A stretch of 64,000 bases of DNA, taken from Euglena gracilis (Eukaryota). Positions 1,919 to 56,600 of the stretch are shown piece after piece. Both the position numbers and the translations under genes were made by a program. The stretch is from the NCBI GenBank assembly GCA_039621445.1, contig CP154954.1, positions 14,743,667-14,807,666 on the forward strand, given 5' to 3'. How positions within the stretch are numbered: position 1 is the first letter of the stretch; each line of letters begins with the position of its first letter. Under the pieces are notes generated by a model. The model was not told where the DNA came from, searched no databases, and saw only the letters and a program-made list of their open reading frames with translations.

Positions 1919-1923
<5 letters not shown>

Positions 1924-17925: not shown

Positions 17926-18024
17926 TTTGGAATATTTCTTAAAAGAAAACCAGCCAAGAAACGAACTCACCAAAAACCCATTTCCATTGTGTGTGTGTGT
18001 GCGCACGTGTTTATGGTTGTGTGC

Positions 18025-20194: not shown

Positions 20195-22177
20195 GGGTCC
20201 CAGAAAATCCTCTTCTTTCGGTACCTGGAGCCTACAGGGCCGCTTCGCGGCGCCTGGTTACCTGAGCCTTCCTGGAGCCTCCCTGAGCCTCCCTGGAGCC
20301 TCCGGCAGGTAAGTTATTTTGTACATAGGCCATGTTCGACCCTCAACCCCTCTGCATCCGCACACAACTCACGTTTGCCCATTTGCTATTTACACCATGA
20401 CCGCCGATGGCAGAATTGGTTGAAACATTTATCCATTCGCCACAAAGACGCCATGTCCGCGTAATTTTGCTTTTACCGTTTTACCCGTTTGCTATTTACG
20501 CCTTGTCCGCCAAATTTTGTCCACACAAAAGGATGTTGTTATTGGGGAGCTGGGGAGGGGGGAGTGGGGTAGGGGAGAGAGGGGAAGGGGGAGGGGGGGG
20601 GAGGGAGGTCCGGGGGGTGGGGGGCGGGGGGAGGGGGCCTGTGGCCCCCTCCCCCCGCCCCCTTTTTTCGCCTCCCCCCGCCCCCCTCCCCCCCGGGCAC
20701 AGCCAAATGAACACCATTTTGGATTTCACGTGACCCTTTTTTTGCACGGCAAATAATTTAGGTACAATTCTGGCCGGATAAATTCATTTTCGGTTTCAAT
20801 TAAGCTCTATGTTGCGTCCCAGCCTCCCATTACACCCATTTTTGCTTTTTTGGCAAACGGTTTATTTTTTTTTTTTGCTAATTTGGGCTATTTTGCATTG
20901 ATTTGGGCAAATATTGGGCCAATTTGGGTCAATATGAACAATGTTATGGCATTTTTGGTCATTTTGTGCCATTTTGGTGATTTTGGGTATTTTTTTTTGG
21001 ATTTTTGTAAAAATTTTGTGGATATTGTTGGCATTTTTGGGCTATTTGGGTTATTTGAAGCTATTTTAGGTCGTTTGGTTGCTCTTTGGGGCTTTTGTGG
21101 TCATTTTGGCTCGGTTGTGAGCCAGTGGATGCAGGCATCAGGCAAGATGCAGACATGGACAAGGTGCAGATGCTGGACAAGATGCAGACACTGGACAAGA
21201 TGCCGTGGATGCAGATGCTGGACAAGATGCAGACGATGGACAAAATGCAGACGCTGGACAAGATGCAGTGGTTGCAGATGCTGGACAAGATGCAGACGCT
21301 GGACAAGATGCAGACGCTGGACAAGATGCAGATGCTGGACAAGATGCAGATGCTGGAAAAGATGCAGTGGTTGCAGATGCTGGACAAGATGCAGATGCTG
21401 AACAAAATGAAGACGCTGGACAAGATGCAGATGCTGGACAAGATGCAGTGGCTGCAGATGATGAACAGGATGCAAATTCCAGACAAGATGCAGTGGACAC
21501 AGATACTGGACGAGATGCAGATGTTGGACAAGATGTAGATGCTGGACAAGTTGTAGATGTTGGACAAAAGAGGACAATATTGGACAACATGCAATGGTTG
21601 AAGATATTGGACAACATGCAATGGATGCAGGTACTGGACAAGGTGTAGATACTGGACAAGGTGCAGAGACCACACAACATGCAAATACTGGACAAGATGT
21701 TGACATTTGACAAGATTCAGACAACGGACAAGATTCAAATGCTAGTCAAGATGCAGATGTTGTCCAGATGTTTCACATCTCTTCTTCTTGTGCCTCGCTG
21801 TGCCTGCATTATCCCATTATCCTTGTCACATCTCCGGCGAGCAACTGCTGATTCATGCATTCTGAGTCTACAACACCACAGATTGCATCACGGCACACCA
21901 CCTGTCCCACTGTCGTCCGGTGCACAAAACTGGTTACCCGAACCTCCCTGGAGCCTCTATGGAGGCTCCCTGGAGGCTGGTTATCTGAGCCGCCCTGGAG
22001 CCTCCCGGAGGCTCCCTAAAAGGGAGCCTCCCTGGAGGCTGGTTATCTGAGCCTCCCTGGAGCCTCCCTGGAGCCTCCATGGAGCCTCCCTGGAGCCTCC
22101 CCGGAGCCTCCCTGGAGCCTCCCTGGAGCCTCCGGCAGGTAACCTCCAGGGCAGGATTCTATTTTTGCGGTAGACCC
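20195..22177. mobile_element. Second, more decayed copy of the 3101-5894 element
   Basis: Same termini (GGGTCCCAGAAAAT ... TTTTTGCGGTAGACCC) and same cargo order (unique part, G/C tract, 18-bp minisatellite). Flanks AAATGATTT / AAATGAACG match 6 of 9. Confidence 0.85.
21125..21760. repeat. 18-bp minisatellite, shorter paralog inside the second element copy
   Basis: Same GATGCAGATGCTGGACAA unit. Confidence 0.95.
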
Positions 22178-22516
22178 AAATGAACGCAAAGTTACAATCA
22201 TTTTCAAAGCCATGTGCGAGTTAGGCGGCCTAAGACAGCGAAACCTTGTGTTTGATTCTTTTCCAACAAAAATGGTGATACTGCGGCTCGTTGTTTCATC
22301 CTATTCGGGGCTGGTGCCGCCAGCCCACCCTGGCAGTCTCTTCCGTCCACCGGCGTGCCTCTGCCATTGGCCGATACGCTGCCCCCTCCGGTCTGCACCG
22401 CCAGCGCTGATTGCACCTCCAGCGCGCCGGGCCTTCCCTCCCCTGGACTGACCCCGTGTGGAAAGCCGTGCAAGACAACCGTTCGCACGTCGCTTTCTTT
22501 TGCTCTTTGCCATGAG

Positions 22517-22934
22517 CAGGTATTATTATTATTGTGTATTTTTTTCGAAATTTTGAGGCATTTTAAGACATTTTTTTGAAGACTTTTTATGGCATTTTAA
22601 GGTGTTGTTTTCCAGGGTGGTCCAAGGGTTATCGAACCAATGTTTTTGATTTTGAATGTTCCCCAAAATCAAAACGTCAAAAAACACTTTTTTTGAGTTT
22701 AGGACAGTAATGTTCCAGCGATGCCAGAAATATTTTTTTATTCCAGGGTTTGGCTCGTTTTTGGCGAGATTTTGCGCTTTGATACTTGTTTGGTTGGAGA
22801 AAATCCTGCCAGTCCAAACTGTTTAAGGCATTTTCAGACATTTTCAAGATTTTAAAGGTATTTTGGCAACATATTTTCAGCCGCCTTTTAAGGCATGTTA
22901 GGTTTTTAAGGCGCCTTAAAAATAATAATGTCTG
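22517..22934. mobile_element. hAT-like MITE with 8-bp TSD
   Basis: Ends CAGGTATTATTATT ... AATAATAATGTCTG; flanks GCCATGAG / GCCAGGAG (7 of 8); TTTTAAGG subterminal repeats. The same insertion is present, split, in copy B at 59293 and ~60765. Confidence 0.8.
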
Positions 22935-32654: not shown

Positions 32655-32667
32655 NNNNNNNNNNNNN
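32655..32667. other. Assembly gap (13 N)
   Basis: Run of N directly followed by (CT)n. Confidence 1.
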
Positions 32668-32683: not shown

Positions 32684-35314
<2,631 letters not shown>

Positions 35315-36039
35315 TTTATGGGGGAACTCCTTTGGGGGGAACTCCTTGACGGCCCGAGAGTGTGTGCTTGTGGGGGGAAGTGTGTTGTCAGTCGGTGTGG
35401 GCGCGTGTGTTGTCAGTCTGTGTTGCGGTTTCGCCCCACGCTGGCGGGTGTGGCATCGTTAAAGGTGACGACCCTGCCAAACCTCGTCCCCGACCGCTCT
35501 TGTCTGTGTGGAACGCTAAAAACGAGCTCTCCCAGTCACCCTCCCGGTGGGGGGGGGGGCTAAAAAAATCCGAAAACAAGGCAGCATGGGACGGGAAAAT
35601 GTCTCCACTACCTGTGGGGCACCCTCCGGGACAGCACCCGGGAAAGCCAGTCAAGGCCCTTTCGGCGCGGAGAAAGGCAAAAATTGCCGAAAAATACGGA
35701 TGGCACCTGAAGGCCTGCGGCGCAAGTACCCAATTCTAAGCCGCTGATACTGGGGTCGCAGCACTGGGAGAGGGGGTGGCCTGAGCCGCAGTTGCTCAGC
35801 GGAATTGCCGAGGGTTTAACCCACAAAATGGGGCGCTGGGGCGAGGCATAGGGGTGCGAAAAAGCAACCACGCCATATGCAATTATGGGGAAAATGCCGT
35901 TAATATTTCTATTTATATATATATATCTCTCTCTGCGTGTGTGTGTGCGCGCGCGTGCGGGTGTATTTTGGACCCATTTTGGGACCCATGTAGGAGGTCC
36001 CCCCCCCCAAAAAAACCCCATTTTTTCACCCCTTCCAAG

Positions 36040-36994
36040 CAGGGGTTTTCTCAAGACGGAGGACACCTATCCCCTGGGGGGGTCAAGCCAGCCAGCAGCA
36101 AAAATTCGGGCTGGGAGCCCCCTCCCGGGGGGTTGAGTGAAATTAAGTCAGGTCCAGCTCCAACTCCCCAGCCCAGGGTTTGATATAAGGAGGGCGTACA
36201 TGGTTTAGGTGGGGAGGGTGTCCCCCCCCCCCCCCCCCCCTCCTGGCCCGCAGGGGGGGTCCGGACCCCCCCCACCTGCCAGGGGGGTCCGGACCGACCC
36301 CGGGACCCCCCCCAAAAAGGGTCAATTTTTTCCTCCGGCGCTTTGCGCCGAAAATTTTTTGCATTTTTCGCACATTTTTGCCCAAAAAGTGCGCAAAATG
36401 GCACTTTTGGTCGTTTTGGGGGGTCAAAAATTTTCGGTAACCCAGACCGCGCAACTGTTTAGGTGGGGGGGGTGTCCCCCCACCCCCCCCCTCCTGGCCC
36501 GCAGGGGGGGGGGTCCGGACCCCCCCCCACCTGCCCTTATGTCGAACCCTGCCCCAGCCTTGATCTCGCTCCATCCACCAAAATGTCGAAAATTGCAAAA
36601 AAATTTTAGAAAATTTTTGTTTTTCACCGATCCAGCCCAGCCCAGTCCCCTCCAGCCCCGGACCCTCCCCTCTCCCCCGGGCCAGCCGGCCGAAGGCCGG
36701 CCAGCCGGTCGCAGGGTGTCCAGGCAACTGGGCTGTCCAGCCCACCTTTCCCTGCATTTTTCCCCCTCATTGCAGCTTCCTCCATCACAGCCCCCAGCCT
36801 TGACCTAGCTCCATCCATCAAAATGTCGAGAAGGCGAAAATGTCTTGGAAAATTTTGTTTTTCACCGACCCAGCCCAGCCCAGCCCCCTCCAGCCCCGGA
36901 CCCTCCCCCTATACCCCCGGGGGGGTCCAGCCAGCAGCTCATTTCCAGCCGCAGGCTGGACCCCCGGGGGGGGGGGTCTTTAAGAAAACCCCTG
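36040..36994. mobile_element. hAT-like MITE with perfect 8-bp TSD CTTCCAAG
   Basis: TIRs CAGGGGTTTTCTCAAGAC / GTCTTTAAGAAAACCCCTG; TSD at 36032-36039 and 36995-37002; empty site CTTCCAAA at ~46048. A solo end of this family is at ~7789-7840. Confidence 0.93.
36174..36551. mobile_element. Nested hAT-like MITE with perfect 8-bp TSD CCCCAGCC
   Basis: TIRs CAGGGTTTGATATAAGG / CCTTATGTCGAACCCTG; TSD at 36166-36173 and 36552-36559. Confidence 0.93.
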
Positions 36995-39900
36995 CTTCCA
37001 AGTTTTTAACATTTTACAAAATTTCCAAGAGAAAAGAATCTCAGTAAAGTTTTATTGTGCCAAAACTTGGTCCAATTTTCTTTGACCTTCGTTTTTTTTT
37101 TTACCCCCTCCTAAAAACTACCAATTTTTAGTCATCAAAATTTTGAGATTATTTTATACAAAAAATGTGGTTTTCCATCAAAAAAATTATGTATTTTGGG
37201 TTCATTTTTCAGAAAAAAGTTTTCAAGAATTTTCCCCGGCTAAAACCCCCGTTTTCCCAAAATTGGTGAAAATGCTGTTGTGGGTTGGTGGGCGGTCGAC
37301 CCCCCCCCACCTCCCGGGTGGGGGTGGTCGATCCCCCCGACCAGGCCTTCCTGTTCTGCCCTGCACCTGAGGAGGGCTGGTTGCTGGTTAGCTGGCTGGA
37401 CCCCCCCCCCCCCCCCCAGAGCAACGGCCTCTCCGGCTTAAGAAAACCCTTGCATATGGCACTGCTCGTATGGCGCTGCATTCGTTTTGTTTGACCAGTT
37501 GTAGTTGGTCCGTTTACAATTTCGGTGCCGTTCCACCCAGCAGGATGGACAGCGAAGCGGCTTGCTGCTGATAGCCAGACTCCCTATGCCATGCCTCTCG
37601 CGACTCTTTCCTTTGTTCATGACCCCTTTTCTTTCGAGTGTCCTTGGTTTTATGCCAAGAAAACTCTCTAATTTCTTTACAGAGGAGTCTTGGAATCACG
37701 GTCCGCTCGTTGTTTTTCTGTTTTGCGCTTTGGATTTGCCGTCTTCCAGCATCCCCCCCAACCAGCAGTTTCTTATTTTTGGCTTGCTGGACCCCCTGGG
37801 TCTGAAACAGCTGGAGAATTAGCGCCGGGTTCTGTAACGTCTTGGTGTATTTGACAAAACAATGAGAAATATGTTTGTAAAAGCGGTTTCATTGTGGCAC
37901 ACCCGTCCATGACCCCCACTCAAGAGAAGTTTGGCCAGCTCTTTTGCATTTCTAAGATTTTTTTTTACAGCCAGTTGCATGTTAGGGCATTTCTTCTGTA
38001 TGCATATGTTGTAAATGTTATGCCGTTGTGTACGTCATTCCTTTGCAAGCTGTTTAGCATCTGCTCTTTGCAGTTTCCTTTACTTTTTCTCAAATAAAAA
38101 TGAGTTTGAATTTAATGTCTTCAATGTATAATTTTTCGGTTCGCTAGGAGACCAATTTGCAAAAAAAATTTCATATTGATCCCAGGGACTGCGCCAACGG
38201 ACCTCGTGCCATATGCTGACGACACATCCCAGCATCTTCCTCTCGGCCTGAGGATGGTACGCAAAGTAAAAACCCTTGTTTTGTCAGAAAGCTTTTGTCA
38301 CCAAAGACATAACGTATCATTTAATAATACGTAATCAAAAGAGATTGGGCTATGGATAATTTGAGGTTGTACATATACACCTACATATACACCGGGGTCT
38401 GTCTCGGTCTTGGGTGACGCAACTCGCAGATAAGGAATTTCCTTTTGTCGGTTCGAATGCTCGCAACATTTTTTTCCACAAAAGTCGGACCCCGCATCTG
38501 GGAAAAGCTGAAAAACTGCTTGTTTCGCGCCTCACGAACCCGTAGCAATTGCAAAAATTGGCGCACTCACTAGCCTTAGTGGGGGGGGGGGGGGGGGGGG
38601 GCGTAAACCGAAAAACATTTTCCTTGTTCCTGTGGGTATTTTCGGAATCGCTGTGAAATGTTCTTTCTGTATTTGGGTCATTTATAGAGTCAAAAAAAGC
38701 GGCAAAAAATTCTTGGCAGCCCCCTGGCACGTTGTCCTCTACGACCGGGTCGTCAGAGTTGGGGGGGCAGACATGCTTCTGGTCCATGGAAAACTAGCAT
38801 CATCACAAATGTAATCACAAGAGCAACAAAGGCTGGTAATTTGGACACAGAGAATGTTTAATTGAAAGAACATCTGGCTTTCGTTGTTTTTTTGGAGAAA
38901 CAAATCATCAACCATTGTGAATTATTACAAGCTGTTGCAAAATGAAGAAATTTCTTTCTCATGTAGTGCATCCTGTTCGGTAGGTTACGTCTTGTGACAG
39001 AAAGTTTGTCTCCGCTCCATGTGCAGTCTTATATGTTTTATTTCCTACCGCAAATTGTTTTCATGTTGGTTTACATAAACTGTGAAAATGATGTAAAAAC
39101 AGAAGTGTATTTTCATGCAACCGTTGTTTGTCGCACATTGCACACAAGGTTGCTGTGACATTTCATGAGGAGAACAAAAAAAAACAGGCAGGATATTTTC
39201 CACAGCTTTCAGCTGAAGGGATGTGTTGTGCGTTACACTGACTATGTGCACATTTGCGCACACCAACCATTTGTGTTTTTTGTGCAAAATGTTCGGTGTG
39301 TGCATTGGCGCACATCGATCACCTGTGCATTTATGCCAAATGATATGTGTGTGCATTTGCACACATCGACAAATTTGTGTATTTTTTACTTGCAAAATAC
39401 ACAAAATGGTCGATGTGCCCAATTTTGCACGCCAACCTTCAGTTCACAAGTAAGACCTGAAAATTTGACATACGCACATTTCGGTCCATTAAAAGCGGAT
39501 ATGTATTTTTCATGCCACAACCATTAATGTATTCCAGCTGCACATCACGACGTCCAACTCATGCGAACCCATCGGCATGAAACCTGTGTGCACCGCCTGG
39601 GCGGTGTGGCAGGGGTGTGGGGGGGTGTGGGGAGTGGTGTGGGGGGGGTTTGGGGGTGTGGGGGCTATTTGCTACCGGGGGCGCCAATTTTTGCAGTACC
39701 TCCGTTTTGCATCACGGAGGTTTCTGATTGTCCTGCGAAATACGTGCGGAGCAGTTCATTCGTGTCCTTGTCTGTGAAACGGGCAGTTAGCACATACCGG
39801 CTGGTATCACCTTTGGGGTCCACCCCCTCCCTTCCACTGACGCGCATGCGCCATTTCCCTCAAGGGTGATGGCAAAAATGGGTGAAATTTTGTCGGAGTC

Positions 39901-42900
39901 CAGGGGAAGATGGGTGCTGCACCTTCCCCCCCCCCCCCCCCCGGACTCCCCCCCCCCCGCTGGCCCTCACTCACCCCCTCTCCCTATTTTGAAAAAAATT
40001 CATTCTTCGATTTTTTTTCAAGAAAAACAGTCTTAAAGTATGAAAAATTTGGCTGGTTACCTGGCGCCTCCCCGGAGCGTGGGGAATGTTTGTTTGTGTG
40101 GGCTCCGGGCCTGCCATGCATTATCTTTTTTGGGGCTGTCACTCCCCTTCTTTGGCAGAATTTCTTGTTTTTTCGGCTTTTTTTTTTTTTATTTCTGGAT
40201 TTTGTTCCGTGCAGAAATAAAAAAAAAAGCCGAAAAAACAAGAAATTCTGCCAAAATCCCCGGCATGCATGCAATTTGCTCGGATCTGTCGCAATCGAGC
40301 TCCCCATCGATCCAAATTCTCAAAGTTCTGGAATCGCTGGCGAAGAGATCAAATTCCATGCATGTTTTCCGTGCATGGAATTCCACGCATTCCATGCATT
40401 CCGTGCATGTGTTTGCGCACACCAACCAAAAGAAGTCTATGTGCGAGTTTCACCACCCAACCACCCAAGTCAGTAAAAATGTGTCGTCGTGGCATTTCAA
40501 GTCAGTTTGGCACCCACCCACCCACTGCTGGAAAGGGCTGTTAGGGGGGCCAATATGGCTTCAGCTTTTATATTCCAGTGATCGGCCATTCCCATGTTCT
40601 CCCTCAAATTCCCTTCCAGAAAGAATCACGGGGTTCCCACATCCCACTGAGGTGGTTCTATTTTCTGGTATTCAAATAATTCAGTAAATAATACAAAGGA
40701 ACAGAGAATCAAAGTCAGAAATGAGAAAGAGAATGGTGGGAGAAAAGAAAAGGCGATGGAAAATGAGAATGACTGGAAATAAGAAGCAACATGCGTGAAT
40801 CTGTGGCAGGAGGAACTAAAAAGAATGCGACAAAAATAGCCCACTCGGTGGCTATATATGGCTACCGAGAGTCAGGCGCCCACACCCAAGCTTCCATCAA
40901 AGGTCCCAGATGGTTCTGGGTGTGTTCCGTTGGAGCTGGCTGCTCCAGCATAGCGGGTGTGTGTGTTGCAAGTGTGTTACTGAGGCAGACAGACCGGCAG
41001 GCAGACAGGCAGACAAAGAATGCGAGACACAAAGAATGAGAGGGAGGGGTATTGCCCCGGGCTTTTGGGAACCCCTGGAATCCAGCGGGTGATGGAATGG
41101 GTGGTGGATGGGGTGGTCGACCTCCCCCCCCCCCCCCACCAGCGAGCCTTCCCACATTACTGGTGGCGCCGATTTTTCGGTCAAATTTTTCTTTGTGGGC
41201 TTGGATGGGTGGCGGGTCGACCCTCTGGGGTCAACCCCCTATCAGGTCCCGCAAGGCCCTTTGGGGTCCCCTGTTGGAGGTGGAGTTTTGGCTATTTTTG
41301 TTTTACCAAACAAAGGATGGACTTTTTCATACCCCAAAATTATCCCCAGAAATTGGGTCCCCAGACCTCTCCCCCCCGGGGGGGGAACCCCTGTACCTGT
41401 CCCTGGCTGGGATACCGGTACCTCCCCCAGTCTTTAAAAGAAAAATTGATGCCTATACAAGGCAGAGAGGCAGACAGAGGCACAGATATTGGTTGTTATG
41501 TGCATTCATTTCAGTTTATGCTAATTTTGTTATCCTCTGACACAAATCAATCAACATCCCCGTACCTGGGGCATGTCATTTTGCAATTTCATTTCACAAT
41601 GCTTGCCTGTTATGCGGTTCTGAGTTAGATGGTTCGTCCATTTTCCATCTGTGTCTGCTGCCTGTCAACGGCAAACTTTTTGTTTGCACCGTTGCTGCTG
41701 CGGAAGGTTATTTTTTTTCCATTCAGGCAACGCCGTGGAGTGCTGATGCGACTGCGTCCGAAGTCTGCTGGGTGAGAGGGAGGGAGGCAGGCCGCCCCAG
41801 GCAGGCCGCCCCATCCTGTGGCCATCAGTCCTTTTTCACAAACAGTCCAGACGCTGCAGAACGACCGGGGACACACAGCAATGTTCACTCATGTTTCCAA
41901 AGACGGGCCTTCCAGAAGAGGTGATGTCTGGATTGTGGCTTTTTTTTATTTGAAATAAATCCAAGCGAAACCAGCGCCTATTTACACCATTTTTAGATTC
42001 ATACCTCGCACGCAAAAGCACATTCATGGAACAAAGACAGAATCGATGTGCTGATTTTTAGTAAATGTTGAGTGTTGAAAGCCGGTCAAAAGTCTCCCCT
42101 GAAATAGCAAGTCCATTTTCAGTTTTCAATTTTCCAGAGGAGAGTTGAGAAGAATGGATAGCTCCGGTTTGCCACGATGTATTTGGTATATGTTCCAAGG
42201 ATGAAGATAGGTGTAATGAACCTGATGGGTGCAATGGAGCAGGAGCACACCACGCTGCGGACCAGTTGCTTGGAGCCGTTTTGAACCCACCCCAAGTTAT
42301 AGTAGAATCCCCTCCTCGTGATAACTGACCTTCAACCTACCCACCATTATCAGCCCACAAGACAAAGAGCCTGGCTTCTGGTTCTGTAACGTTTTATTCA
42401 TATTTTTACATCAATCTCCCACATTCAATTTGGAGTGGTTGTTTCTTAGACATGAATGAGTTGAAGCACAGACCAGTGTTTGAGCAAATAATTTTTTGCC
42501 TCCTTCTTCGAATTCTTCGAATACAAAAATTTTCAGCGGTGTGTGTCAGGGATTGGTGTTCATATTGAAACAGATAACTACGGATGATTCTGGCTGCTTT
42601 TTGGGCAATTTTAGCCTCCTTTGGCCCACTTTTTTTTTGTCACTTTTGGCGATTTCTGACTGTTTTTTGTTTTGAATTTTGTCATTTTTGGCTGTTTCTG
42701 GCCGATTCCAACCGTTTTGTGGCCATCTGCATATTTTTTTTCTTTCAATTTGCTTTAGCCTTTTGTGACTCTTTTTTTTTTTCAGGCGGCTTTGCTGCTT
42801 CTGGGCGTTCCTAGCTGCTTCTGGCCGACTTAGTCATTTTTCAGTGACATTTTCCTCGTTGTAGGCATTTCTGAGGCGATATGACGATCAATCTTTATGT

Positions 42901-45876
42901 TCTCATTGGTTGCAGCAATTTCTGGGTGGATGTCCTCAGCCAGTACAGGCATTGTCGCAATAACGGATAATTATGGACAATTATGGATCGCAACAAATGA
43001 TGCCCCATGCTCTGATTGTCATCCTAATTCACCACCTCTCAATAGCGATGCGAGGCTTGCAGCTGTCATTCAGTCTCCACTAAGACCCCGTGCCCTGGTT
43101 GCTATTGCCGTGCTCACGCCAGGTGTAAACACCCCATCCGCTGATGACCCATATCTCCCCACTTTGTTTGGGGTGCCTTTCGCATTCCAGGTCGGGCGTC
43201 ACTTAAGCCGAAGGGCACCTCATCCCTGGGTTGGAGGGTCCACCAGCCAGCTGCTTTTTTCCAGCCTCGGACAGCCCCCTATCGACGAGTTTTGATTTAT
43301 TTTGCAGTCCTAGAAGGAAGGCTGGATGGTAACAGATTCTTTTTTTGCTTTTGAGGGGCACATCCGGACAAAAAATAAAACACGCAAAATGCCAGAAAAA
43401 GTGCTGGCTAGCGGAATATTTGGTCGAAGAATCTTTTTTTTTTCGCAGGTATTTTTTCAGTTTCGATTTTCTTCTACGTAGTTTGACCCCAGCAGCTTTT
43501 GCCCAGCCTGCCCAAAATTTTCCATCCGCACCCCCCGGGGGGGTCCTCAGGCGACGCCCTGTTTCCAAATGTCTGTTCTTGTAAGCTTCAGCTGCTTTGC
43601 CAATGCTTAGGTCTTCTTCATGGCAGCTGTTGGAATGTGTCCAACTCTCTGATGGGGGGTGGAAGGGGCCACCAGACTCATCCCAGGGATCGAAATATGT
43701 GTGGTATATATGATGTGTATGTATTCGGTCAATGTTCGATTTCCAACCAGCTTTTTTTTGATCCAATCATTTTTGGTCATTTTTAAACACTTTCCTTCGC
43801 CTTTTCTTCTGGCCATTTTCAAGCCTTTCTGTGATGATTAAGAACTCCTGACGCCTTTTTTTTTCCCTCTGCCCAGGTTCTTGGGAGGGCAGACGACTGG
43901 TGATTGGCTGGTTTGATATCAGATTTCTTTGGGGACGTTTTTACTCTTGCCACCATCATGGCAATATATCTTGTGATATTTCTCAGCAGTGAAAATATGC
44001 ACACATCCGGAATAACCCCAAATTAACAAAACACGAAAAAAATTATTATGCATTTAAAATATATTGTCGGAATAAAATTCTGATCACAGAATTGTGTCAG
44101 ATAATTGAAGAAACAACTCGTTGATTTTTTTTATTCCTCTGATTTGTGTTTGCCACAGCCCGTTTTGCGGGGGTCCTGATTAGTGTTTAATATCCTTGTT
44201 CTTTTGCGCCTCGCCGATACATCGTCACGCCACAGTTTAGGGGAGGGGGGCACTCCCCGCCTCCTTAAACCACAAGGGTTAGTTGGACCACCTGCCTGGC
44301 CTAGTGTCCAACATTGGGTTGGCTGCCTTGGAAACCCCCTCAAACAGTCAGATGCACTCGCCGCTGCCGTCCCAGCGCAGGCGGTTGTCTTGTGTGAACA
44401 ACCCGTTAGTTCCTGTTGTGCTGCTGTTGGCCGTTTTCTGGATGCACCCCGACCCAAGCCCCCATCGTCAGAAGCGCATTAATGGGGCACTGGACCACTC
44501 TCTGCACAAACACCCTTGCCGAAAAAAAAACAGCTTTTCCTGATTGGCAGAATGTGGCTTCGGTGACGTGTGTGTTTCTGTGGTCGCTTCGTCAATTCAC
44601 AAATCAGGTGAGTTGAGAACATTTTGAAAATGAAGATTTGCTGAAATGGATTCAAGAGGGTCGGCAGGGTTATGTGCAACGACCTCCCCTCTTCTGGTCC
44701 GATGCGATCATTCTGGATACATTGGGTCCATAAATATATGTTTTTTTGTTGTTGTTTTTTGCTAATAAAAGTACATAAATAAGCAAATAAAAATACACAG
44801 TGAAATGAAAGAAATAAATGAAACATGGTGAAATGACCAAACATGGAAAATATTACAATAAACTGCTGAAAATTTTAATATGACTCGGAAAAAGGGCGAC
44901 TCAAGATGTCAAAGTTGACGTGAATTTTTAAAAGCGGCTTGCCATTGTGCAAGCTTGCAATAAAATGACCAACAATGACTAAAAGTGGCCAGAAACGGCA
45001 AACTGGCCAAAAATGACGCTCAGACGGTCAAAAATGGCCAAAGAAATGAAATCAGTCAAAAAAAAAAAACGGACAAAAAATCCCAGGCACCTGCCCCCCC
45101 CCCAACCCTCTCCCTGCATGCAAATTTGGCACCCCTGAAGCGTGCCCCCCTATTTTTTAACGTTTTTGGCTCACGTTGCAACTGGCCCGCTCGTTACCAG
45201 ATTCCAAAACCAGAACCACAGAACCAGAACACTGATTGGGACTGGTGGTCAAACTTTTCGTGCGAAACTGGACAGCTGACTCAGGAATTTCAACAGTGCA
45301 GACACAAAACTGAAAGACGAACCAGCAAACAGCAGAAACACACTGCAGCAGCAACAAGCAGCAGTCATTCTTTGGTGCTCCCAATGATCTCCCAAGGAAG
45401 GTGTGAGAGAGAGTGTGAGAGCTGCCAACCCGCCCCTTTTCACTCAAAAACTCCCTAAAAATAAAAATAAAATGCAATTTTTGAAACAAGCCGCGAGGGG
45501 GATCGAACACACCCTGGGCAGGGTGAAAGATCCGACGCAAAGGGGTGCCAGCCACGGAAAAACGGAAATTGGGGTTCCAGGTACACCGATACAACATGGT
45601 TGCAGAGGTAGACTGCCCAATTTTGACTCCCCTCCAACGTGCGGTTGCGAACAACGCCAGAGGCTGTAAAAACTGACGCTGACATGCCAGCTGCCCCAAC
45701 CGCCATCACTGGGGTGGTGGAGCCAGCGGATGGCTGCTCAGCCATGTACCAACCACTGGAGACGCCAGCTGCCTTAACCACCATCGCCTCACCGACATTA
45801 CAGTGCCAAAGACATGCAATGACAGCCCACTTCTAAATTTCTAAACACACAAATTTGCCCCCTGGGGTTGCCCCCC

Positions 45877-46469
45877 CAGGGCAGAACGGGAATCGGCCGA
45901 ACAGCCAGGGTGGGTGCCCCCCCCCCACCATCTCTTCCCGTTTTTCCGGGAGCACCAATTTTTGGACCCGAAAAAAAATTTTACCCATTTTGGGACCCAT
46001 GTAGGGGGTCCCCCCAAAAACCACCCAAAACCCCATTTTTTTCACAGCTTCCAAAAATTCAACATTTTCTCAAAGTTTTGATTTTGAGAGGTTTATGAAG
46101 CAAAAAAATGCCATTGAAAGTCCAAAAAAATTCAACAAGAAAAAAAATGTCAGTAAAATTTGACTGTGCCAATATTTGGTCCACTTTTTTTTGACCTGAG
46201 TTTTTTTCAAACCCCCCCTAAAAAGTACCAATTTTTTAGCCCTGATTTTTTTTGAGATTTTTTTTCTGAAAAAAATGTGGTTTTCCATCAAAAAATCATG
46301 TGTATTAGGTTCATTTTTTAAAAAAGATTTCAAATTTTTTCTGGCCAAAATCCCCGTTTTTCCGAAATCGATGAAACTGCTGTGATGGGTGGGGGCGGTC
46401 GACCCACCCCCCACCTCCCGGGGGGGGGGGGGGGGGTGACCCCCCACCAGGCCTTCTCGTTCTGCCCTG
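45877..46469. mobile_element. Full-length CAGGGCAGAAC-family MITE
   Basis: TIRs CAGGGCAGAACGGGAA / TTCTCGTTCTGCCCTG; TSD decayed (TGCCCCCC / CCTCCCCC). Confidence 0.8.
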
Positions 46470-48473
46470 CCTCCCCCGGTGCTGGCCTTCAATCATGGCC
46501 TGGGAGGAGAGGAAGATCACACGCGGCGATGTTTTCGCCGATCTGTGCTTTCTTCCCTCCACTTGTCTGTGGACCCCGGAATATTAACCCTTCCAAAAAT
46601 GAGACCCCACAAAAAATAAGACTTATCGTGGGCCGTTCAACAGGCGGGGGGAACCGATATGTGCAATTTTCATACAATTTACGTAATCTTTCGCAGTTTT
46701 CCCGCAATCTTCGCAATTTTTCCGCAACTGTTCCGTATTTTTTCATGTTCCACAATGAGTTCTGGCCATTCCCTGAACGTTCCAAAAGAGAACCAAGGTT
46801 ATTTTTTTTTATTTGTTGCAAATTTGCCAAGATTTGTCAAAGTTTATAAATTTTGACAAAATTTGGCGATTTCTGGGCATTTTTAGGCTTTCCCCAATTT
46901 CTGCTGAGAATGATGAAAAAGGTTTGACTGAAAAAATCTGCATCCTGGATTAGTTTTCACCTGAGACCAAATTTTTAGACAATTTTTTGCCGTTTTTGAC
47001 TTCTTTACCAAATAAATGCCATATTTCCAGAAGTTCCAAAAGTTGTGTTTTTGGACCTTTTTTGGTGGAAAGAGGTGAATTATGGCTCAAAATTTCCATC
47101 GATGTTGAAAACTGACCAAATTTGAGAAACCTCCAGCAGAAGTGTGTTTATTCCCAAAACCGCAATTTGTGCATTTTTTTTGCCAATTTTTCTGCAATTC
47201 CCACAATTTTTCAGCAATTTTTCTGCAATTGGTCCACCCCCCCCCCCTGCGACTGATAAAAACTTCAAAAATAAGATCCCGCAACAAGACCTCCTGGTGC
47301 AAAGCGTCGGGGAGGGCCCGCTTTTTCTTTTTCCTCCTCTTGAAAATTTTGGTGGTTTACCCCAACAATCTATCATGTCTTGCTCTGGGGGGGGGGGCTG
47401 CCTAGGGTCCATTAGCTGGCAATTTTGCTGGTCACTAGGTTCCCCAGACCGTGAATCCCGCTCAATCCTTGACACAAAAATGATGAAGTTCTAGGGTTTT
47501 TTGAAGTGCAAAAAAAATGTGGTAAAATTACACCAATTTCCACATTGCGCACCGAAGGAATTTTTTTAGTGCTTTTGGGAACCTGAAAAATAATGATTAT
47601 TCTGGGCCCCGGTTGGTCAAGGAAAAATGCAAATATAGGATCTTCCCGGAACAAGACCCTGGAGGTTTCCAGCAATGGACCCAAAGTTAGACTCAGGTCA
47701 TATTTTGGGCGGGGATCACGTGAGCGTTGGTCCAGACAAACCTCCACCCCCCTTCAGACTGATGGAGGATCCGGGACCCCCCAGAAACCCAAAAAAGAAG
47801 ACAACTTTTTTTTTCTCCGGTGCATTGCACCAGAATTTTTTTTCGTGTCTATTTTGGCCTATTTTTCAAGAAGAATTTGGAAAACGCGATTTTTGGGGTT
47901 TTTCAAGTCCCAAAAAATTTCCGCCTTTTTTTTCCCCGGGAGGGAGTCCAACCCTCCCTTTCGGTGGTGTCCAGACCACTCCCTTCTTGCCTGCTCATTT
48001 CGTAACCTGGTCGACCTCCTTCCTGGTCAGAGACAGAAAAATGTTTTAGCGGCTGCCTCCCTGGTGAGAGACAAACATTCATGGTTGTTGAACAGGGATG
48101 GGAGGTTGTTGGGTGGAAAAGGACCAGCCTGGACGCAAATGAACAATGCAACCCCAGTCCTGGTGGTCAGGCTTCTTCATAAGGGTTCGCATTCCAACCC
48201 TGGGGGGGTCGACTGAAGCTAGTCCGAGTTGGGCTTGGACCCCGGGGGGGGGGGTCCACTTGCAGGCTAGGTGGTGGTTTTTTTTTAACAAGTCACCGGC
48301 GCCAAGCGAGAAATTTTTACTTGAACCCCAAACCTTCCAAAAGTGCCCGTCTTTTTTTTTGGAACTTTTTTGGAACAAGCCGAAAAAAACACCCACCAAA
48401 AACCCCACTCGGCGCAGCCAGTTGGTGTGTGTTTTCCAGTGGATTTCCAGTGGGGGATTTTAGGGACCCGGAC

Positions 48474-48729
48474 CAGGCTTCTTTTTAAGTAAGAAGCCCC
48501 CCCCCCCTGGGGGGGAGGGGGTGGGTGGGTGGGTCCGGGCCGCCCCCCCCCCCGGGTTGGGGGTCCTGCGCCGGAGGCGCCGGGTATACCTTTTCGGCGC
48601 AAAGCGCCAAATTTTTTTGAAAATTGCCTTTAACGGGCCCGATTTTGGGGGTCCCCGCCCCCCCAGGGGGGTCCCGCGCCACCCTGGGTGGGTGGGGGGA
48701 CCCCCCCGGGGGTCTTGAAAAGAAGCCTG
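48474..48729. mobile_element. hAT-like MITE with perfect 8-bp TSD ACCCGGAC
   Basis: TIRs CAGGCTTCTTTTTAAG / CTTGAAAAGAAGCCTG (15 of 16); TSD at 48466-48473 and 48730-48737. Confidence 0.93.
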
Positions 48730-49298
48730 ACCCGGACTCCGGACCTCCCAGCAGAGAGTGGCCCAGTAAGTGGCTTTTCTAGTGGCAAGTTTCAGAACCC
48801 CCGGGATCTCAAGGGAAAGCCTGGCTCTGATAATGCAATAGGTGTGTGTGTGTGTGTGGTGTGTGTGTGTGTGTGTGTGTGTTTATGCTTGTGTGCAGTT
48901 GTGTGTTTGTTTTTTTTAAATTAAATTACAGGTCCTGGTTTTCCATTGGAAATTGTCCAATCATGCTGGTTTTTCGCATCGGCACTCGATTCGGCTGCAC
49001 TGGTCCTGAACCTGTACACCTGCAATCTGACCAAGTTTTTCAAAATTCACTCTCGTTCCGCCCTGCTCACTGGAGTATGGTGAGAGAACGCTTTCTTCCT
49101 ACCCACCTCATTCGTTGCACTGCAACTGCTTTGACCGTGCCACGTCTTTGCCTGTGGTAACAGAGGATGCTTTGTTTATGGGTGTCTGTGCAGTGTCAAC
49201 TGAAATGCATTCCAAACCTCCACTCCACTGGTGAATGTGTAATCAAAAAAATGCTTTTTTGCGTTTTTTCTTGTTTGACCCCCTGTTTGTGTTTTGAG

Positions 49299-49632
49299 CA
49301 GGCTGAAGCACTGACCGGGGGGTGGTTGACTGGTTTTTTCAGAGTGATTGACTGGTTTTTGGCCTGGACCCCCTCCCCCCCCCCAGGGGGGTGGTCGGCC
49401 AGGAGTGGGCAAAAGTGGCTTGAGTGACCCCGGCGCCGAAGGCGCTGGATAATTTTTTTTGGCCTAAAATGGCCGTTTTTCTGGAAAATGGAAAGTGGCC
49501 GTTTTTCTGAGTGGCCGACCCCCCCCCCCCCGGGGGGGGGTAGTGGCTGGCTGGTTTTTGAAAATGAGTGACTGACTGGTTTTTAAAAAAGTGGAGTGAC
49601 CCCCCCCCCGGGGGTCGGTAAAAAATTGTGTG
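49299..49632. mobile_element. Insertion with perfect 8-bp TSD GTTTTGAG and CA...TG ends
   Basis: TSD at 49291-49298 and 49633-49640; empty site GTTTTGAG at 10493-10500. TIR is poor beyond CA/TG. Confidence 0.75.
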
Positions 49633-52600
49633 GTTTTGAGGTGGCTACCCCCCATGTGTGATGAACCCCCTGGCCCAATGAACAGGGGGTCCGGACTTTC
49701 CAACTTTTCATCTTTTACAGCAATGCAAATGCCCATACACTCATGCTCAAAAATTTTGCCCGATTCGGAATCTCTTGATTTTATTTTGGTGTTCATTCGG
49801 CTTGGGGGGGGTGTGGTACATGAAACATTGCTGCACAATAAAAGTTAAGCTCATGTGTATGTTTTCCTGATTATTTCACATTCTCCTTTGGAGAGTGGTC
49901 AACCAACGATGGTGGGTTAGGCGTGAACCGTCATTGCTTGATGGAACAAGATATCGGAAGACTTGGCACAATGCAGCTTTCATGGCATGGCCTCTTTCCA
50001 ACCCATGGCAACCTGCTGAAGCGTCCCCCACTGGCTGCATCATTTGTTGACCACTGGTTAACATTTGGGGGGGGTTAGCTGCAGGTGAGATTCTCATTCA
50101 GACGGACCAATGCAATGTCCAATGTAACTCAAGCAGCTCCCCCAATTTTATATTTTGGTGGAATTTCAAGGTCCTCATCTTCCCCAATAATGTGCATTTT
50201 CTTGTCCAAAATGGACGATTTCTGGGGAAAAAAATTCTGGTTTATCCTGCATGCCACCCTGGGTTTATGTTTTATGTTTGGGGGTTTTGCACTATTTTTA
50301 TGTACTACTCCTGAATACCTGGGACAAGGAGGGCGTTGTCTTTCAGAAGTTGAAAGTAGGAAGTTTGACTGATTCAGCCTGCGTCCATCAACCAACCGCT
50401 CCTGCCGACACCTGATCGTACAGCTTCCCACGCTTTCCACGGCCCATGCTTTTTCTGTTGTTCTGAAAAAAAACTGAATTTGTGAGTTAATTCTGACGTC
50501 AAACCCACTGGGTCACGAGGGTTACCTTGGCCCCCTATTACTTACATGCAAGCTTGGCCCCCCAAAGTTGGCCTTTTCTGCAAATTTGCAATCTTGGCCT
50601 TTAGTAAAGTTTTTTTTTCCACAGATCTTGCAGAATACTCACCGAAATCTCAAGGATTCCAATTTCGCGCTATGGTTTTTCCAGGCAAGAGGAAATGCTA
50701 TCTGGACCTGTTTTCCTTCCCAAGTCTGTGATGACCAAGGTGTCTGCTTTTGGGGAGGGTGTTACACAGAGTCTGGACAGAAATACATGGGAACCAAAAA
50801 TGATGAAGAATCGACAACATTGTGAGATCATCCACGTGAAAAGACAAAAAAGTAGCAAAATTTGATCTTCCTCGTGCTCGTGGGATAAGCACAAAATATA
50901 AAACTAAAACAAAGATTTATTTCAAAGCAGTGGGTGGGAACTCTGTGGTGCAGACATTTTTTCGCTGGCTCTGCTTTCTTCTTTACGTGGAAACAGCATG
51001 CCAGGTTGAAACAACGGGTTTTTGGCGCGCACGGGGATCCTGGACCCCCCCTCCCTGCGATGAACATTCACCGGGGAAAGGGGGGGTACCGGGCGGTGAA
51101 TGTCACCATTTTGAGCGTTTGGGTGTTTTTTTTTTTTGCTTTGTCATATTTTGTTCTTTTTCCTCTAAAAATGACTATTTTGATGCCATTTGGTCGGAAA
51201 TTTTGATAAAAGCTTCACCGGTGAAGTTCACCATTGGTTTATGCGAGGGAGGGAAGGTGTCCAGGACCCCCCAGTGAAGTTTCAAACGGTGAGCCTCACC
51301 ACAGGGGGGAGGTCCAAGATGACCAATACTGCCGGATCTCCAAGGCTGATGGCGGCCGGGAGTCCAAGATTCAACAGACAAAATTCTTCCCAATGCGAAA
51401 AAACCTTCTGGTCGCCTTCGGTGGCCGGCTTTTTGCAAAAAAAATTGGGGGTTGTTGCATTATGGTGGGCTTCCTACTCATGACGGCGACAGGCACCGTA
51501 CGCTTGGCCCGTGCGTCTTCTGGAGTAGTGGCTCGCATCCACTCTTAAAACAAATTGTTTGTCTGGATTAACGTGTTTTAGAATTAATTCATTGCACAAC
51601 AGTGATTTCATTTTTTAAAATGTCACCATGTCGGATGGGTCCCAAGCAGGGGTTTTTTTAGTCTTGGACCCCCTCCCCCGGGGGGGAGGGGGGGTAGGGT
51701 GGGTGGGTCCCTTGGACCCCCTCACCGGAGGCAGAGGGTGACAATCCAGCCCCCGGTGACACATCTCAAAACAGGAAAGGGCTCGCCCAGTCCAGGGATG
51801 CAATTCCACCCAGGGTTTCACCATCCATAGGCCAGAGACGCCGATACCGCGGACGTTATTGTGTCCTTGGGGGGCACACCTCTTGCAATCTGAAGTGTGC
51901 CACTGAGTCCGGGTTATATCGGACCTTCTTTCATCCCCCAACCTTGACCGCTTTGCGGGGTAGCAGTGTGCTGGCTTGACCTCGCTGAACCATCAAATGT
52001 GCTGGAGGGAGCTACCCGTGGGACACTTCACAGGCAATTTTCCGCGACACCTGTTATTTGGTTTGCGAGAATGACAAACATTGTGTGTTGCTCCGATTTT
52101 TTCCCTTCCGATTTTAGTGGTGTATGGACCGGACATTTCCCCCTGACTATGGACAAAGAAATTGCAAGCAAAAAAGCAACGTTATGAAAGTCTCGGAAAT
52201 TCAAACAGAGCCGCCATGGAGGCTTTCAAACCCACGGGGACATGCCCCACAACGTGGGAACGTGCCTTCGACCATGGCGCCTGCCATTGCAGAAGCAGAG
52301 AAGCTTTCAGAGAGATTGCATCTTGTCCACCCCCGGAACTGTCTGTGTCGGGTGTGCCGCCCCATACCCCTGTGACATGCCCCCCCCCCCCCCCGGCGAA
52401 GGGCAGTGCTCGGCGAGGGGGACCTGATTTTTTAAACTATCTGACACGCATTTTCGAATAATTTCTGTTTTTTAATATTGTTTTCTATTTTCTGCTTTTT
52501 TCAATCTGGCAACTCCGTAGTTGGCAAAGTACAAGAACCCTAGAGCGGCTCGTGCATTGAAAATGAACAAAGAAGCAAAGTTACTGGAATACAACAGAAC

Positions 52601-53665
52601 AGTCAACAAAAAAATAACAACAACAACAAAAAACACAAACAAATTGTATTATGAGAAAGGGCTCAAGAAACCATGTAAATGTGACATAAATTGAAACAAT
52701 CAAACAAGGTAAAGCAGAATAGAAATAAACAGAGCAGCATCTGGGAGCATAATTTGCGTGCATCTTCTTTGAATTTCTTCGCATACCCCAGTTTGTGGCC
52801 TGTCGGATGGTTCCACTTTCCGCTTTCAGGAATACCTCCAATTGTCTAGCACACTTGGAAATGTTTTGTGACTTCGAAGCAGTGTTTTCTTCAGGTGCTG
52901 GCTGGACCCACAGCCCTTTTCCAGCTAAAAATTAAGGTTATCAAAACCCAAACACCCACCCTCAAAACACCCACTTTTGACCATTTTTGGACCGAATTTC
53001 TCCAATTTGCATCCAAAAAAAATCCCCCAGCCCACCAGTACCACGGGACCTCTCCCACCCGCCCCCCCGTAACTCTCACTCTCCATTCATTGAGGGCATT
53101 GAATTTTTTCGACCTTTCCCCCCTGAATTGGTCAGAAATGCCCCCAAAGGAGTGGTGGGTTCTGCTTGTGTCTCCCCTTCTCAGGGTAGTATAGGAAGCT
53201 CCGCAGACATGAGGTAGATGGGGGACCCCTAGGGGGTCACCCCCCCTCCCCCATCCCCCTTTCTAGTTTTGGAAGTGGGTCCGCCACCCCCCCCTCCTCT
53301 GCGGGGGCAAAATAAAAAATCTTCCGGTGCTTCGCGCCGGGGGTGTATACTAGGACCCACTTGAGGCTCAAAGTAATAATATGCACTCGATGGCGAGAAT
53401 TTCCAGCTACCAAAACTGGAGATAGGAGGGGTGTTTGCCCCCCCTCCCCAGATTCCCAAACAAGCCTGCCCCTCCTTCTCCGGAAAATCGCCGCCGTGAG
53501 TTCACGCGGTCACACGCCTCCCAGTCACATCCCGTGCCCTGGGGCCCAGTGCCGGCCCCTCACTCGCCCCCACACGCGTGCTGCCTTCCGCCTCGGTCGC
53601 CTCCATCCCCAGGGTGGGACGCGCTGCCAGTTGCCCAGGCGCTGATGCCATTTTCCATGAAGAGA

Positions 53666-56600
53666 CCATGGAAGCTGAGGACCACCCTCGGTAAGTCTCG
53701 CGGATTTAGTCACCCCTTTTCACCCCAGGGTTTCACACTTTCTTTTTGACAATCAACAGAAAGATTCAGGGTCCTTTGGTAATGAAGGTGCCCATTGTTC
53801 TTTTTTCCCCATTGGGCCACAGAGACCCCCCGCCAGGCTTATGGTTGGGACAGTCCGTTGCGGTATATCATTTGCAGTTATAAGACGCTGTTCTTGAAAC
53901 TCTTTCTTTGTGTTGGATATTTTATTTTTGCGTCTCTTTGTTATGAGCATGTGTTGACTTTGAAAGTTTTGGTTAGAAATGATTCCGATTCAAATCTGAC
54001 TTTGGGGCCAAGGTTTGATATAAGGAGGGCGTACATGGTTTAGGTGGGGGGTGTCCCCCCCACCCCCCCCCCCCTCCTGGCCCGCAGGGGGTGTCCGGAC
54101 CCCCCCCACCTGCCAGGGGGTCCGGATCGACCCTGGGGGGGTACCCGGGACCCCCCAAAAGGGTCAATTTTTTCCTCCGGCGCTTCGCGCCGAATTTTTT
54201 TTGCATTTTTTGGCACATTTTAGCCCCAAAAGTGCCCAAAATGGCACTTTTGGTCGGTTTGGGGGGTCAAAAATTTTCGGCTGGTGCTTCGCGCTGGGCC
54301 GAAAATCGGTCACTCGGGCCGCACCCCTGTTTAGGTGGGGGGGGTGTCCCCCCCCACCCCCCCACCTCCTGGCCTGCAGGGGGGGGTCCGGACCACCCCC
54401 CCCACCTGTCCTTACATCGAACCCTGTTTGGGGCCCAATTTTCAGCTGAGACCTTTTTCATTAGAAACGTGAGAAAGGGAAAAAAATATTATTATATTAT
54501 TAATTGTATTTATGTCACAACAATACAAACGTTTGGAAGTCCATGGAAGCTGAGGACCACCCTCGGTAAGTCTCGCAGATTTAGTCACCCCTTTTCACCC
54601 CAGGGTTTCACACTTTCTTTTTGACAATCAACAGAAAGATTCAGGGTCCTTTGGTAATGAAGGTGCCCATTGTTCTTTTTTCCCCATTGGGCCACAGAGA
54701 CCCCCCGCCAGGCTTATGGTTGGGACAGTCCGTTGCGGTATATCATTTGCAGTTATAAGACGCTGTTCTTGAAACTCTTTCTTTGTGTTGGATATTTTAT
54801 TTTTGCGTCTCTTTGTTATGAGCATGTGTTGACTTTGAAAGTTTTGGTTAGAAATGATTCCGATTCAAATCTGACTTTGGGGCCAAGGTTTGATATAAGG
54901 AGGGCGTACATGGTTTAGGTGGGGGGTGTCCCCCCCACCCCCCCCCCCTCCTGGCCCGCAGGGGGGGTCCGGACCACCCCCCCCACCTGCCAGGGGGGTC
55001 CGGATCGACCCTGGGGGGGTACCCAGGACCCCCCAAAAAGGGTCAATTTTTTTGCATTTTTTGGCACGTTTTAGCCCCAAAAGTGCCCAAAATGGCACTC
55101 TTGGTCGTTTTGGGGGGTCAAAAATTTTCGGCTGGCGCTTCGCGCCGGGCCGAAAATCGGTCACTCGGGCCGCACCCCTGTTTAGGTGGGGGGGGGTGTC
55201 CCCCCCCCCCCCCCCCCCCTCCTGGCCTGCAGGGGGGGTCCGGACCACCCCCCCCCACCTGTCCTTACATCGAACCCTGTTTGGGGCCCAATTTTCAGCT
55301 GAGACCTTTTTCATTAGAAACGTGAGAAACGGAAAAAATATTATTATATTATTAATTGTATTTATGTCACAACAATACAAACGTTTGGAAGTCCATGAAA
55401 GCTGAGGACCACCCTCGGTAAGTCTCGCGGATTTAGTCACCCCTTTTCACCCCAGGGTTTCACACTTTCTTTTTGACAATCAACAGAAAGATTCAGGGTC
55501 CTTTGGTAATGAAGGTGCCCATTGTTCTTTTTTCCCCATTGGGCCACAGAGACCCCCCCGCCAGGCTTATGGTTGGGACAGTCCGTTGCGGTATATCATT
55601 TGCAGTTACAAGACGCTGTTCTTGAAACTCTTTCTTTGTGTTGGATATTTTATTTTTGAGTCTCTTTGTTATGAGCATGTGTTGACTTTGAAAGTTTTGG
55701 TTAGAAATGATTCCGATTCAAATCTGACTTTGGGGCCAAGGTTTGATATAAGGAGGGCGTACATGGTTGAGGTGGGGGGTGCCCCCCCCCCCCCCCCCCT
55801 CCTGGCCCGCAGGGGGGGTCCGGACCACCCCCCCCCACCTGCCAGGGGGGTCCGGATCGACCCTGGGGGGGTACCCAGGACCCTCCAAAAAGGGTCAATT
55901 TTTTTGCATTTTTTGGCACGTTTTAGCCCCAAAAGTGCCCAAAATGGCACTTTTGGTCGTTTTGGGGGGTCAAAAATTTTCGGCTGGCGCTTCGCGCCGG
56001 GCCGAAAATCGGTCACTCGGGCCGCACCCCTGTTTAGGTGGGGGGGGTGTCCCCCCCCCACCCCCCCACCTCCTGGCCTGCAGGGGGGGGTCCGGACCAC
56101 CCCCCCCCACCTGTCCTTACATCGAACCCTGTTTGGGGCCCAATTTTCAGCTGAGACCTTTTTCATTAGAAACGTGAGAAACGGAAAAAATATTATTATA
56201 TTATTAATTGTATTTATGTCACAACAATACAAACGTTTGGAAGTCCATGAAAGCTGAGGACCACCCTCGGTAAGTCTCGCGGATTTAGTCACCCCTTTTC
56301 ACCCCAGGGTTTCACACTTTCTTTTTGACAATTAACAGAAAGATTCAGGGTCCTTTGGTAATGAAGGTGCCCATTGTTCTTTTTTCCCCATTGGGCCACA
56401 GAGACCCCCCCCCCGCCAGGCTTATGGTTGGGACAGTCCGTTGCGGTATATCATTTGCAGTTATAAGACGCTGTTCTTGAAACTCTTTCTTTGTGTTGGA
56501 TATTTTATTTTTGCGTCTCTTTGTTATGAGCATGTGTTGACTTTGAAAGTTTTGGTTAGAAATGATTCCGATTCAAATCTGACTTTGGGGCCAAGGTTTG

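Follow-up and report, generated by a model that had tools for sequence, protein, structure and literature searches.

Inverted-repeat elements at the locus

We analysed a 64-kb stretch of contig CP154954.1 (positions 14,743,667 to 14,807,666; hereafter the window), which is eukaryotic and repeat-rich, with a G+C content of 48.8% and many diverged internal duplications. It harbours six short elements with terminal inverted repeats (TIRs), and in all six copies a duplicated 8-bp target, intact or decayed, directly abuts the element termini. They fall into five families without sequence relationship to one another (A-E, 256-955 bp), which start with CAGG and end with CTG (CCTG in four of the five) and have TIRs of 12-17 bp. 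Here, we describe these MITEs (miniature inverted-repeat transposable elements) and weigh the possibility that they are a source of the nonconventional introns of euglenids, whose published splicing code their ends and target-site duplications (TSDs) match. The initial annotation had listed seven CAG/CTG positions as several distinct MITE families with 8-bp TSDs. Six of these positions are real elements, and the distinctness of the families was borne out. The duplication is exact in four of them (those starting at 36040, 36174, 48474 and 54009); it reaches 7/8 at 22517, which had been listed with the intact ones, and 5/8 at 45877, which had rightly been called decayed. The seventh position, 28889, could not be confirmed: with its best end, at 29108, the TSD matches at 6/8 and the termini form no more than about five Watson-Crick pairs.

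MITE A starts with CAGGGGTTTTCT and ends with the reverse complement of this sequence at 13 of 14 terminal bases; it contains MITE B and an internal direct repeat of approximately 240 bp. Since A interrupts an older copy of family C (C') and B lies in A, the locus is a three-deep insertion nest, in which B jumped into A and A into C'. The sister copy of family C at 45877-46469 has the target of A uninterrupted (...CAGCTTCCAAAAATTC). The open reading frame (ORF) that runs across A and B matched no Pfam family. ARAGORN called a tRNA-Gly(CCC) of 96 nt at 37278-37373, most likely falsely, as the call lies on the G/C-rich palindromic end of the C' MITE.

The TSD of MITE C has decayed to TGCCCCCC on one side and CCTCCCCC on the other. 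MITE E predates a duplication of its surroundings, since its right end and flank are found again in a paralogue near 60600-60965. A second insertion of family B (B2) has the CAA start that the initial annotation had read as a mutated CAG. B2 and its flank make up five tandem units of 853-875 bp (53663-58009), all of which share the TTTGGGGC duplication and the CAA start, which argues that MITE and flank were amplified together after insertion. Counting these, the window contains six copies of family B (five through tandem amplification) and two of family C.

Evidence for insertion and abundance

As a control for chance, the window was simulated 100 times with a first-order Markov model. Combinations of CAG...CTG ends, an exact 8-bp TSD and a TIR of at least 9/14 numbered 0.1 on average in the simulations (maximum 1) and three in the window; with a TIR of at least 12/14, the simulations gave 0.0 and the window again three. 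When any TIR of at least 12/14 with an exact TSD of 6-10 bp was admitted, the matches listed (the first 14 of 9-42 for each TSD length) comprised, beyond these elements, tandem-repeat and poly-C artefacts.

Empty paralogous sites were found for A, C and D (Table 1), and they identify these elements as true insertions. These sites were supplied by the large internal duplications of the window, which share 66-99.7% identity (1-8450 with 38700-45880, 11078-14512 with 15396-20123, and 33661-34294 with 34556-35188); a duplicated pair of 634 bp in the G+C-rich block (59-63% G+C) is 99.7% identical. Loose read ends at 46041 show the uninterrupted sequence CCTTCCAAAA in other genomic copies too. In the DNA run X1, summed word depth, a measure that is not a copy number, was about 57-140 in single-copy contigs and 1.8e5-1.1e6 in the bins with B, A, C and D, so families A-D are very abundant in the DNA reads of the organism. 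Exact-pattern scans of metagenome contigs for family B gave 0 matches. When the ends of A, B, C, D and E were joined by a linker and folded, the stem started at CAG:CTG and the TSD bases stayed unpaired. With their TIRs, TSDs of fixed length and empty sites, and as short, non-coding and multi-copy sequences, A-E are non-autonomous cut-and-paste DNA transposons, that is, MITEs.

Table 1 Coordinates of the elements, their duplications, empty sites and RNA contig pieces (window positions)
Feature	Position	Strand	Length	Sequence	Remarks
Left TSD of MITE A	36032-36039			CTTCCAAG	
MITE A	36040-36994		955 bp	CAGGGG...CCCCTG	TIR 13/14
Right TSD of MITE A	36995-37002			CTTCCAAG	8/8 match to left
MITE B	36174-36551		378 bp	CAGGGTTTGATA...	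TIR 12/14; nested in A
TSD of MITE B	36166-36173 and 36552-36559			CCCCAGCC	8/8
C', left part	35965-36039				Older family-C copy hit by A; 80% identity to 45978-46054 of C
C', right part	37003-37363			...TTCTGCCCTG	
MITE C	45877-46469		593 bp	CAGGGCAGAACG.../...CGTTCTGCCCTG	First 12 terminal bases perfectly inverted
MITE D	48474-48729		256 bp		TIR 13/14
TSD of MITE D	48466-48473 and 48730-48737			ACCCGGAC	8/8
MITE E	22517-22934		418 bp		TIR 12/14; TSD GCCATGAG/GCCAGGAG, 7/8
B2, second family-B insertion	54009-54426			CAA start	TSD TTTGGGGC, 8/8
Empty site for A	46030-46060			...TTTTTCACAGCTTCCAAAAATTC...	Inside element C
Empty site for C	8404-8460			...GGTTGCCCCCC	Then right flank directly
Empty site for D	10053-10141			...GGGACCCGCAC joined to CTCGGACCTCCCAG...	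Target ACCCGCAC once between same flanks
X15 record 9, letters 1-113	40883-40997	+			Then genomic CAGGCAG, not GT
X15 record 9, letters 177-280	42260-42363	+			Preceded by ...ACGCTGCG, not AG
X15 record 10, letters 1-82	43103-43184	+			Then TTCCAGGTC, TTC CAG GTC
X15 record 10, letters 158-306	44324-44472	+			Preceded by ...CATTGGGTTGGC, no AG within 8 bases

Fit of the element ends to the published splicing code

Of the 649,158 introns of Euglena agilis, 71.8% belong to the nonconventional type, and such an intron has the form of 3 nt and CAG at its start and CTG and 5 nt at its end (PMC12501133). In the knock-ins reported there, mutation of CAG or of CTG abolished splicing, the length of the 5' spacer was strict and the 3' spacer tolerated one additional nucleotide. 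Terminal pairing was also required, and synthetic introns of 50 bp with 12 complementary bases next to the motifs were spliced (PMC12501133). Flanking direct repeats make 69.1% of nonconventional introns 'slidable' according to the same source. A 2016 study reported G or C at +7/-9 in 31 of 55 introns, a purine as the first base of the intron in 51/55 and of the next exon in 55/55, and a pyrimidine before both cuts in 49/55 (PMC4770533). It also described an intron of gapC that occurs in one E. agilis strain only, and is hence recent, with direct repeats of eight nt, longer than the junction repeats of other introns.

The element ends together with the 8-bp TSD fit this experimentally defined code exactly. 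If the cuts fall 3 nt before and 5 nt after the element, CAG at +4..+6 and CTG at -8..-6 are true by construction; given the CAG/CTG ends, the 8-bp TSD and the 3/5-nt rule, the element would leave with exactly one TSD. The sum of 3 + 5 = 8 nt, put forward in the initial annotation, is correct and uses a rule that is backed by knock-ins (PMC12501133). Its worked example is confirmed by the letters as well: with 36037-36999 cut out, which begins with A and finishes with C, CTTCC is joined to AAG. B2 departs from the code, with CAA and not CAG. The published preference for G or C at +7/-9 parallels the CAGG start of all five families. At TSD position 6, where the downstream exon is predicted to start, five of the six elements have a purine and element C has a C, counted over few copies that are intergenic and without selection. 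Under this geometry both cuts would fall between positions 5 and 6 of the duplicated target, which would account for the same pyrimidine-to-purine preference at both junctions, and the large share of slidable introns with flanking direct repeats would fit an origin from a split TSD.

That nonconventional introns may derive from MITEs is a known idea, as the initial annotation had stated. It was proposed in 2014 from inverted repeats alone, by authors according to whom euglenid genomes had been explored only cursorily (PMC3935182), and was repeated in a 2024 review that mentions TSD-like repeats (PMC11282704) and in a 2025 paper (PMC12501133). In the E. gracilis assembly paper, 32.7% of repeats remain without a class and MITEs are not mentioned in the available text (PMC11252322), and the main text of PMC12501133 uses neither 'hAT' nor 'TSD' as a term. 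In the literature covered by our searches, supplementary tables excepted, we found nothing that joins Euglena, introns and hAT or an 8-bp duplication, and nothing that names source elements, their superfamily or the sum of 3 nt and 5 nt as an 8-bp TSD. The concrete families, the link to 8-bp duplications and hAT, and the explanation of 3 + 5 = 8 appear to be new.

RNA evidence for nonconventional splicing

Reads of four runs were aligned to 35320-53600, namely X21 and X22, which are declared as RNA-Seq, X15, a small run guessed to be RNA, and X1, which is DNA. At seven unique bins in which the depth of X21 and X22 is at most 0.07, that of X15 is zero; sharing these empty bins with the declared RNA runs, X15 behaves as RNA. 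X1 covers all 30 bins and bridges the stretches that are skipped by X15 contigs. Two of these contigs (records 9 and 10; Table 1) match the window with 0 other letters and skip 40998-42259 and 43185-44323, respectively (1.1-1.3 kb), with 63 middle letters unplaced in record 9 and 75 in record 10. Neither GT nor AG stands at any of the four junction ends, whichever strand is read. The donor at 43184 has CAG exactly at +4..+6. With no AG at the acceptor at 44324 and no GT near the donor at 40997, at least two introns are non-canonical even if their boundaries slide.

We then searched for the middle exon of record 10 with the rule of CAG at +4..+6 and YTG at -8..-6, allowing slides where the letters permit. 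A single solution was obtained (exon 43428-43500, introns 43185-43427 and 43501-44321), in which both downstream exons start with a purine; 8 of 300 interior shuffles gave any solution. An alternative for the donor at 43184 is a hairpin mini-intron of 49 nt at 43185-43233, which fits the donor and the fold and does not fit the next intron. Taken together, the reads provide modest evidence that the host has nonconventional splicing of the euglenid type, and this splicing points to a euglenozoan, most probably a euglenid. The initial annotation had made its argument conditional on such a pathway; the X15 contigs with non-GT-AG junctions, one of them with CAG at +4..+6, speak for it in part.

The transcript to which these contigs belong (40883-44837, plus strand) is weakly expressed and spliced, with short exons and non-GT-AG junctions. 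Translation of its RNA-defined pieces gave no convincing reading frame, and the indels that set its paralogue (approximately 2448-8393) apart have lengths other than multiples of three; the transcript may thus lack a coding function or be an untranslated region. Among the RNA contig pieces and joints listed, none has its end at a border of A, B, C or D. Most of the joints listed for the aligned reads connect paralogous repeat copies or poly-C tracts and were discounted. Hundreds of RNA-Seq reads end in C- or G-tracts at 36221-36243, 39926-39943 and 46436-46438. These loose ends read as long, impure poly-C or poly-G and yield a false joint from 36240 to 39926 in RNA runs only; they represent either a library artefact or tract-rich transcripts.

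Other features of the window

No convincing long reading frame was seen in the window, and a period-3 scan of it indicated no exons, the only prominent signals being those of tandem repeats and of a single G+C-rich stretch (33051-33201). Rfam gave 0 matches at gathering scores over the whole window and, at E <= 0.5, sub-threshold hairpin matches only, with microRNA models falling on palindromes. A near-perfect hairpin of 100 nt lies at 40151-40255 (CAGAATTTCTTG...CAAGAAATTCTG), with a paralogue near 1715-1803. Many microRNA models match it below threshold, its palindrome extends into the flanks, and no 8-bp duplication is visible at it. A run of 13 N at 32655-32667, at the edge of the G+C-rich block and adjoining 78-bp tandem repeats, represents either a gap in the assembly or masked sequence.

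An element of a different type, 2.8 kb long, occupies 3101-5894. Its termini are GGGTCCCAGAAAATTTGGAATCC... and the inverse, with GGGTC ends, and it is flanked by an exact 9-bp duplication, ATCCTCTGA, whose paralogous site at 41532-41540 is empty. The interior is filled with palindromic repeats of 11/74 bp and a satellite of 18/63/81 bp, and related ends occur near 20254-22178 and 59542-59826. These features fit Merlin or Mutator rather than hAT.

Proposed origin of introns from MITEs

We propose that A-E would be mobilised in trans by a transposase of the hAT type encoded elsewhere. In a transcript, their terminal repeats would fold into a stem with CAG:CTG at its foot, and because the ends are inverted repeats, this stem could form in either orientation. 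The host would then make one cut 3 nt upstream of CAG and the other 5 nt downstream of CTG, and the resulting intron would run from the third-last nucleotide of the left TSD through the element to the fifth nucleotide of the right TSD. Loss of these 3 + 5 = 8 nt along with the element would restore the pre-insertion RNA; landings in exons would be harmless, and the elements would become nonconventional introns at once. The copies in the window, which are intergenic or nested in repeats, would represent the source type and not working introns.

A-E are real and mobile MITEs; on balance, it seems somewhat probable that their ends, of the nonconventional-splicing kind, would allow them to be removed seamlessly and to become new introns. 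That they actually generate introns has, in our estimate, a roughly even chance. The broader proposal is that nonconventional splicing amounts to 'precise excision' of hAT-like MITEs at the RNA level, with a 3/5-nt ruler that equals the 8-bp TSD and with A-E as living sources; we hold it tentatively, a little short of an even chance. Since the 1990s it has been an open question how the nonconventional introns of euglenids arise and how they are removed, and high-copy families with the right ends and TSD make the hypothesis of a MITE origin directly testable. If the proposal is true, no other host splicing system would be moulded so clearly to the geometry of a single type of transposon. The proposal would also explain several hundred thousand introns, together with their flanking repeats, their pyrimidine-to-purine junctions and their strain-specific positions.

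Alternative explanations

Several observations weigh against this proposal. As the initial annotation had noted, the copies lie outside evident genes, and none sits in an exon or corresponds to an intron that RNA defines (A-D; E and B2 lie outside the aligned stretch). The RNA-defined introns in the window have no recognisable TSD, and the model intron of 243 nt (43185-43427), which was folded, has no end-to-end stem (z = 0.33). For record 9, no exon model fits the CAG/CTG rule, CGG/CCG variants included. The donor at 43184 is followed by T, a purine-to-pyrimidine step opposite to the published preference. The junction ends observed number only four, and they were read from the table of contig pieces and not from listed joints, so that they can slide by a few bases. 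Pfam found 0 families and no transposase in the 20 scanned of 65 ORFs of at least 150 aa, the other 45 having been set aside by eye as tandem-repeat or low-complexity frames. CAG-ended hAT MITEs with 8-bp TSDs are common across eukaryotes, many of which lack such introns, and the equality of 3 + 5 and 8 may be a coincidence. A-E could accordingly be ordinary hAT-type MITEs without a causal link to introns; the splicing machinery would then need its CAG:CTG stem for unrelated reasons, and nonconventional introns would arise along other paths, such as double-strand-break repair or changes in older introns by mutation. This reading is supported by the position of the copies, by the spread of such elements, by the window introns without a TSD and the folded one without an end stem, and by the authors who saw the eight-nt repeats of gapC, who explained them through double-strand-break repair (PMC4770533). 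We nevertheless consider it unlikely, as several independent features match at the same time, namely CAG, CTG, the following G or C, the terminal stem and spacers that sum to exactly 8 nt. It is also countered by the direct repeats that flank 69.1% of nonconventional introns (PMC12501133) and by the pyrimidine-to-purine step at both junctions, as for the same cut in a duplicated target (PMC4770533).

Another question is to which superfamily the elements belong. The label 'hAT-like' is provisional and drawn from the TSD length and the CAG start of the TIRs only. The TIRs of hAT elements typically follow the consensus YARNG, which CAGGG of A, B and C fits and from which CAGGC (D) and CAGGT (E) depart at the fifth base; the TSD of 8 bp agrees with hAT. 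Conceivably, A-E are intron-competent MITEs of a non-hAT superfamily, with Merlin as the obvious choice: from E. gracilis, two families of Merlin are described that have 8-bp TSDs (PMC8101967), no hAT transposase was found in the scanned ORFs, and the element at 3101-5894, with its GGGTC termini and 9-bp TSD, fits Merlin or Mutator. This is quite improbable, given that all Merlin TIRs begin with GG in the available text of that source (PMC8101967) and that the TSDs here directly abut CAG/CTG ends, which agree with the hAT consensus in three families. More remote still is the reading that the host is not a euglenid and that the skips of X15 are structural variants, paralogue chimeras or non-canonical spliceosomal introns of another lineage. 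X15 is labelled as RNA by guess only, the window is full of diverged duplications, and hemistasiid diplonemids have non-canonical introns with inverted G/C-rich ends (PMC12621601). Against this, the X15 pieces match the locus without a single other letter, X15 is empty in the same seven unique bins as X21 and X22, and X1 bridges the skips. Moreover, the absence of AG near the acceptor at 44324 and of GT near the donor at 40997 excludes GT/GC/GA-AG systems. We regard this reading as very unlikely and retain the proposal that A-E are hAT-like MITEs with seamlessly removable ends.

Comparison with known systems

The elements resemble the nonconventional introns of euglenids in having CAG at +4..+6 and CTG at -8..-6 from the predicted cut, G or C next to these motifs and a terminal stem, as well as in their flanking direct repeats and in sizes from tens of bases to kilobases. 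In contrast to the published introns, the copies in the window lie outside genes and none was seen spliced; they are defined as DNA families in many copies, with empty sites and intact 8-bp TSDs, features that are not on record for the published introns. With the hAT MITEs of the Ac/hobo/Tol2 type they share an 8-bp TSD, short CAG TIRs, the absence of coding sequence, a length of 256-955 bp, nesting and a high number of copies. They differ from these in that no autonomous partner or transposase was found among the 20 of 65 long ORFs scanned, and in that they reside in a protist host with a non-spliceosomal excision code of its own that matches the element ends. Merlin of Euglena gracilis likewise has 8-bp TSDs in a euglenid genome, and its TIRs start with GG and its elements encode a DDE transposase of the IS1595 type (PMC8101967), whereas the elements here start with CAG. 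A further parallel is with the Introners of Micromonas, Aureococcus, dinoflagellates and others, DNA transposons whose insertion creates introns, in which TIR and TSD are also present and element and duplication jointly supply what splicing needs. Introners depend on the spliceosome and carry or co-opt GT/AG; for A-E, by contrast, we propose a stem and a 3/5-nt ruler that would act in either orientation and remove exactly one TSD.

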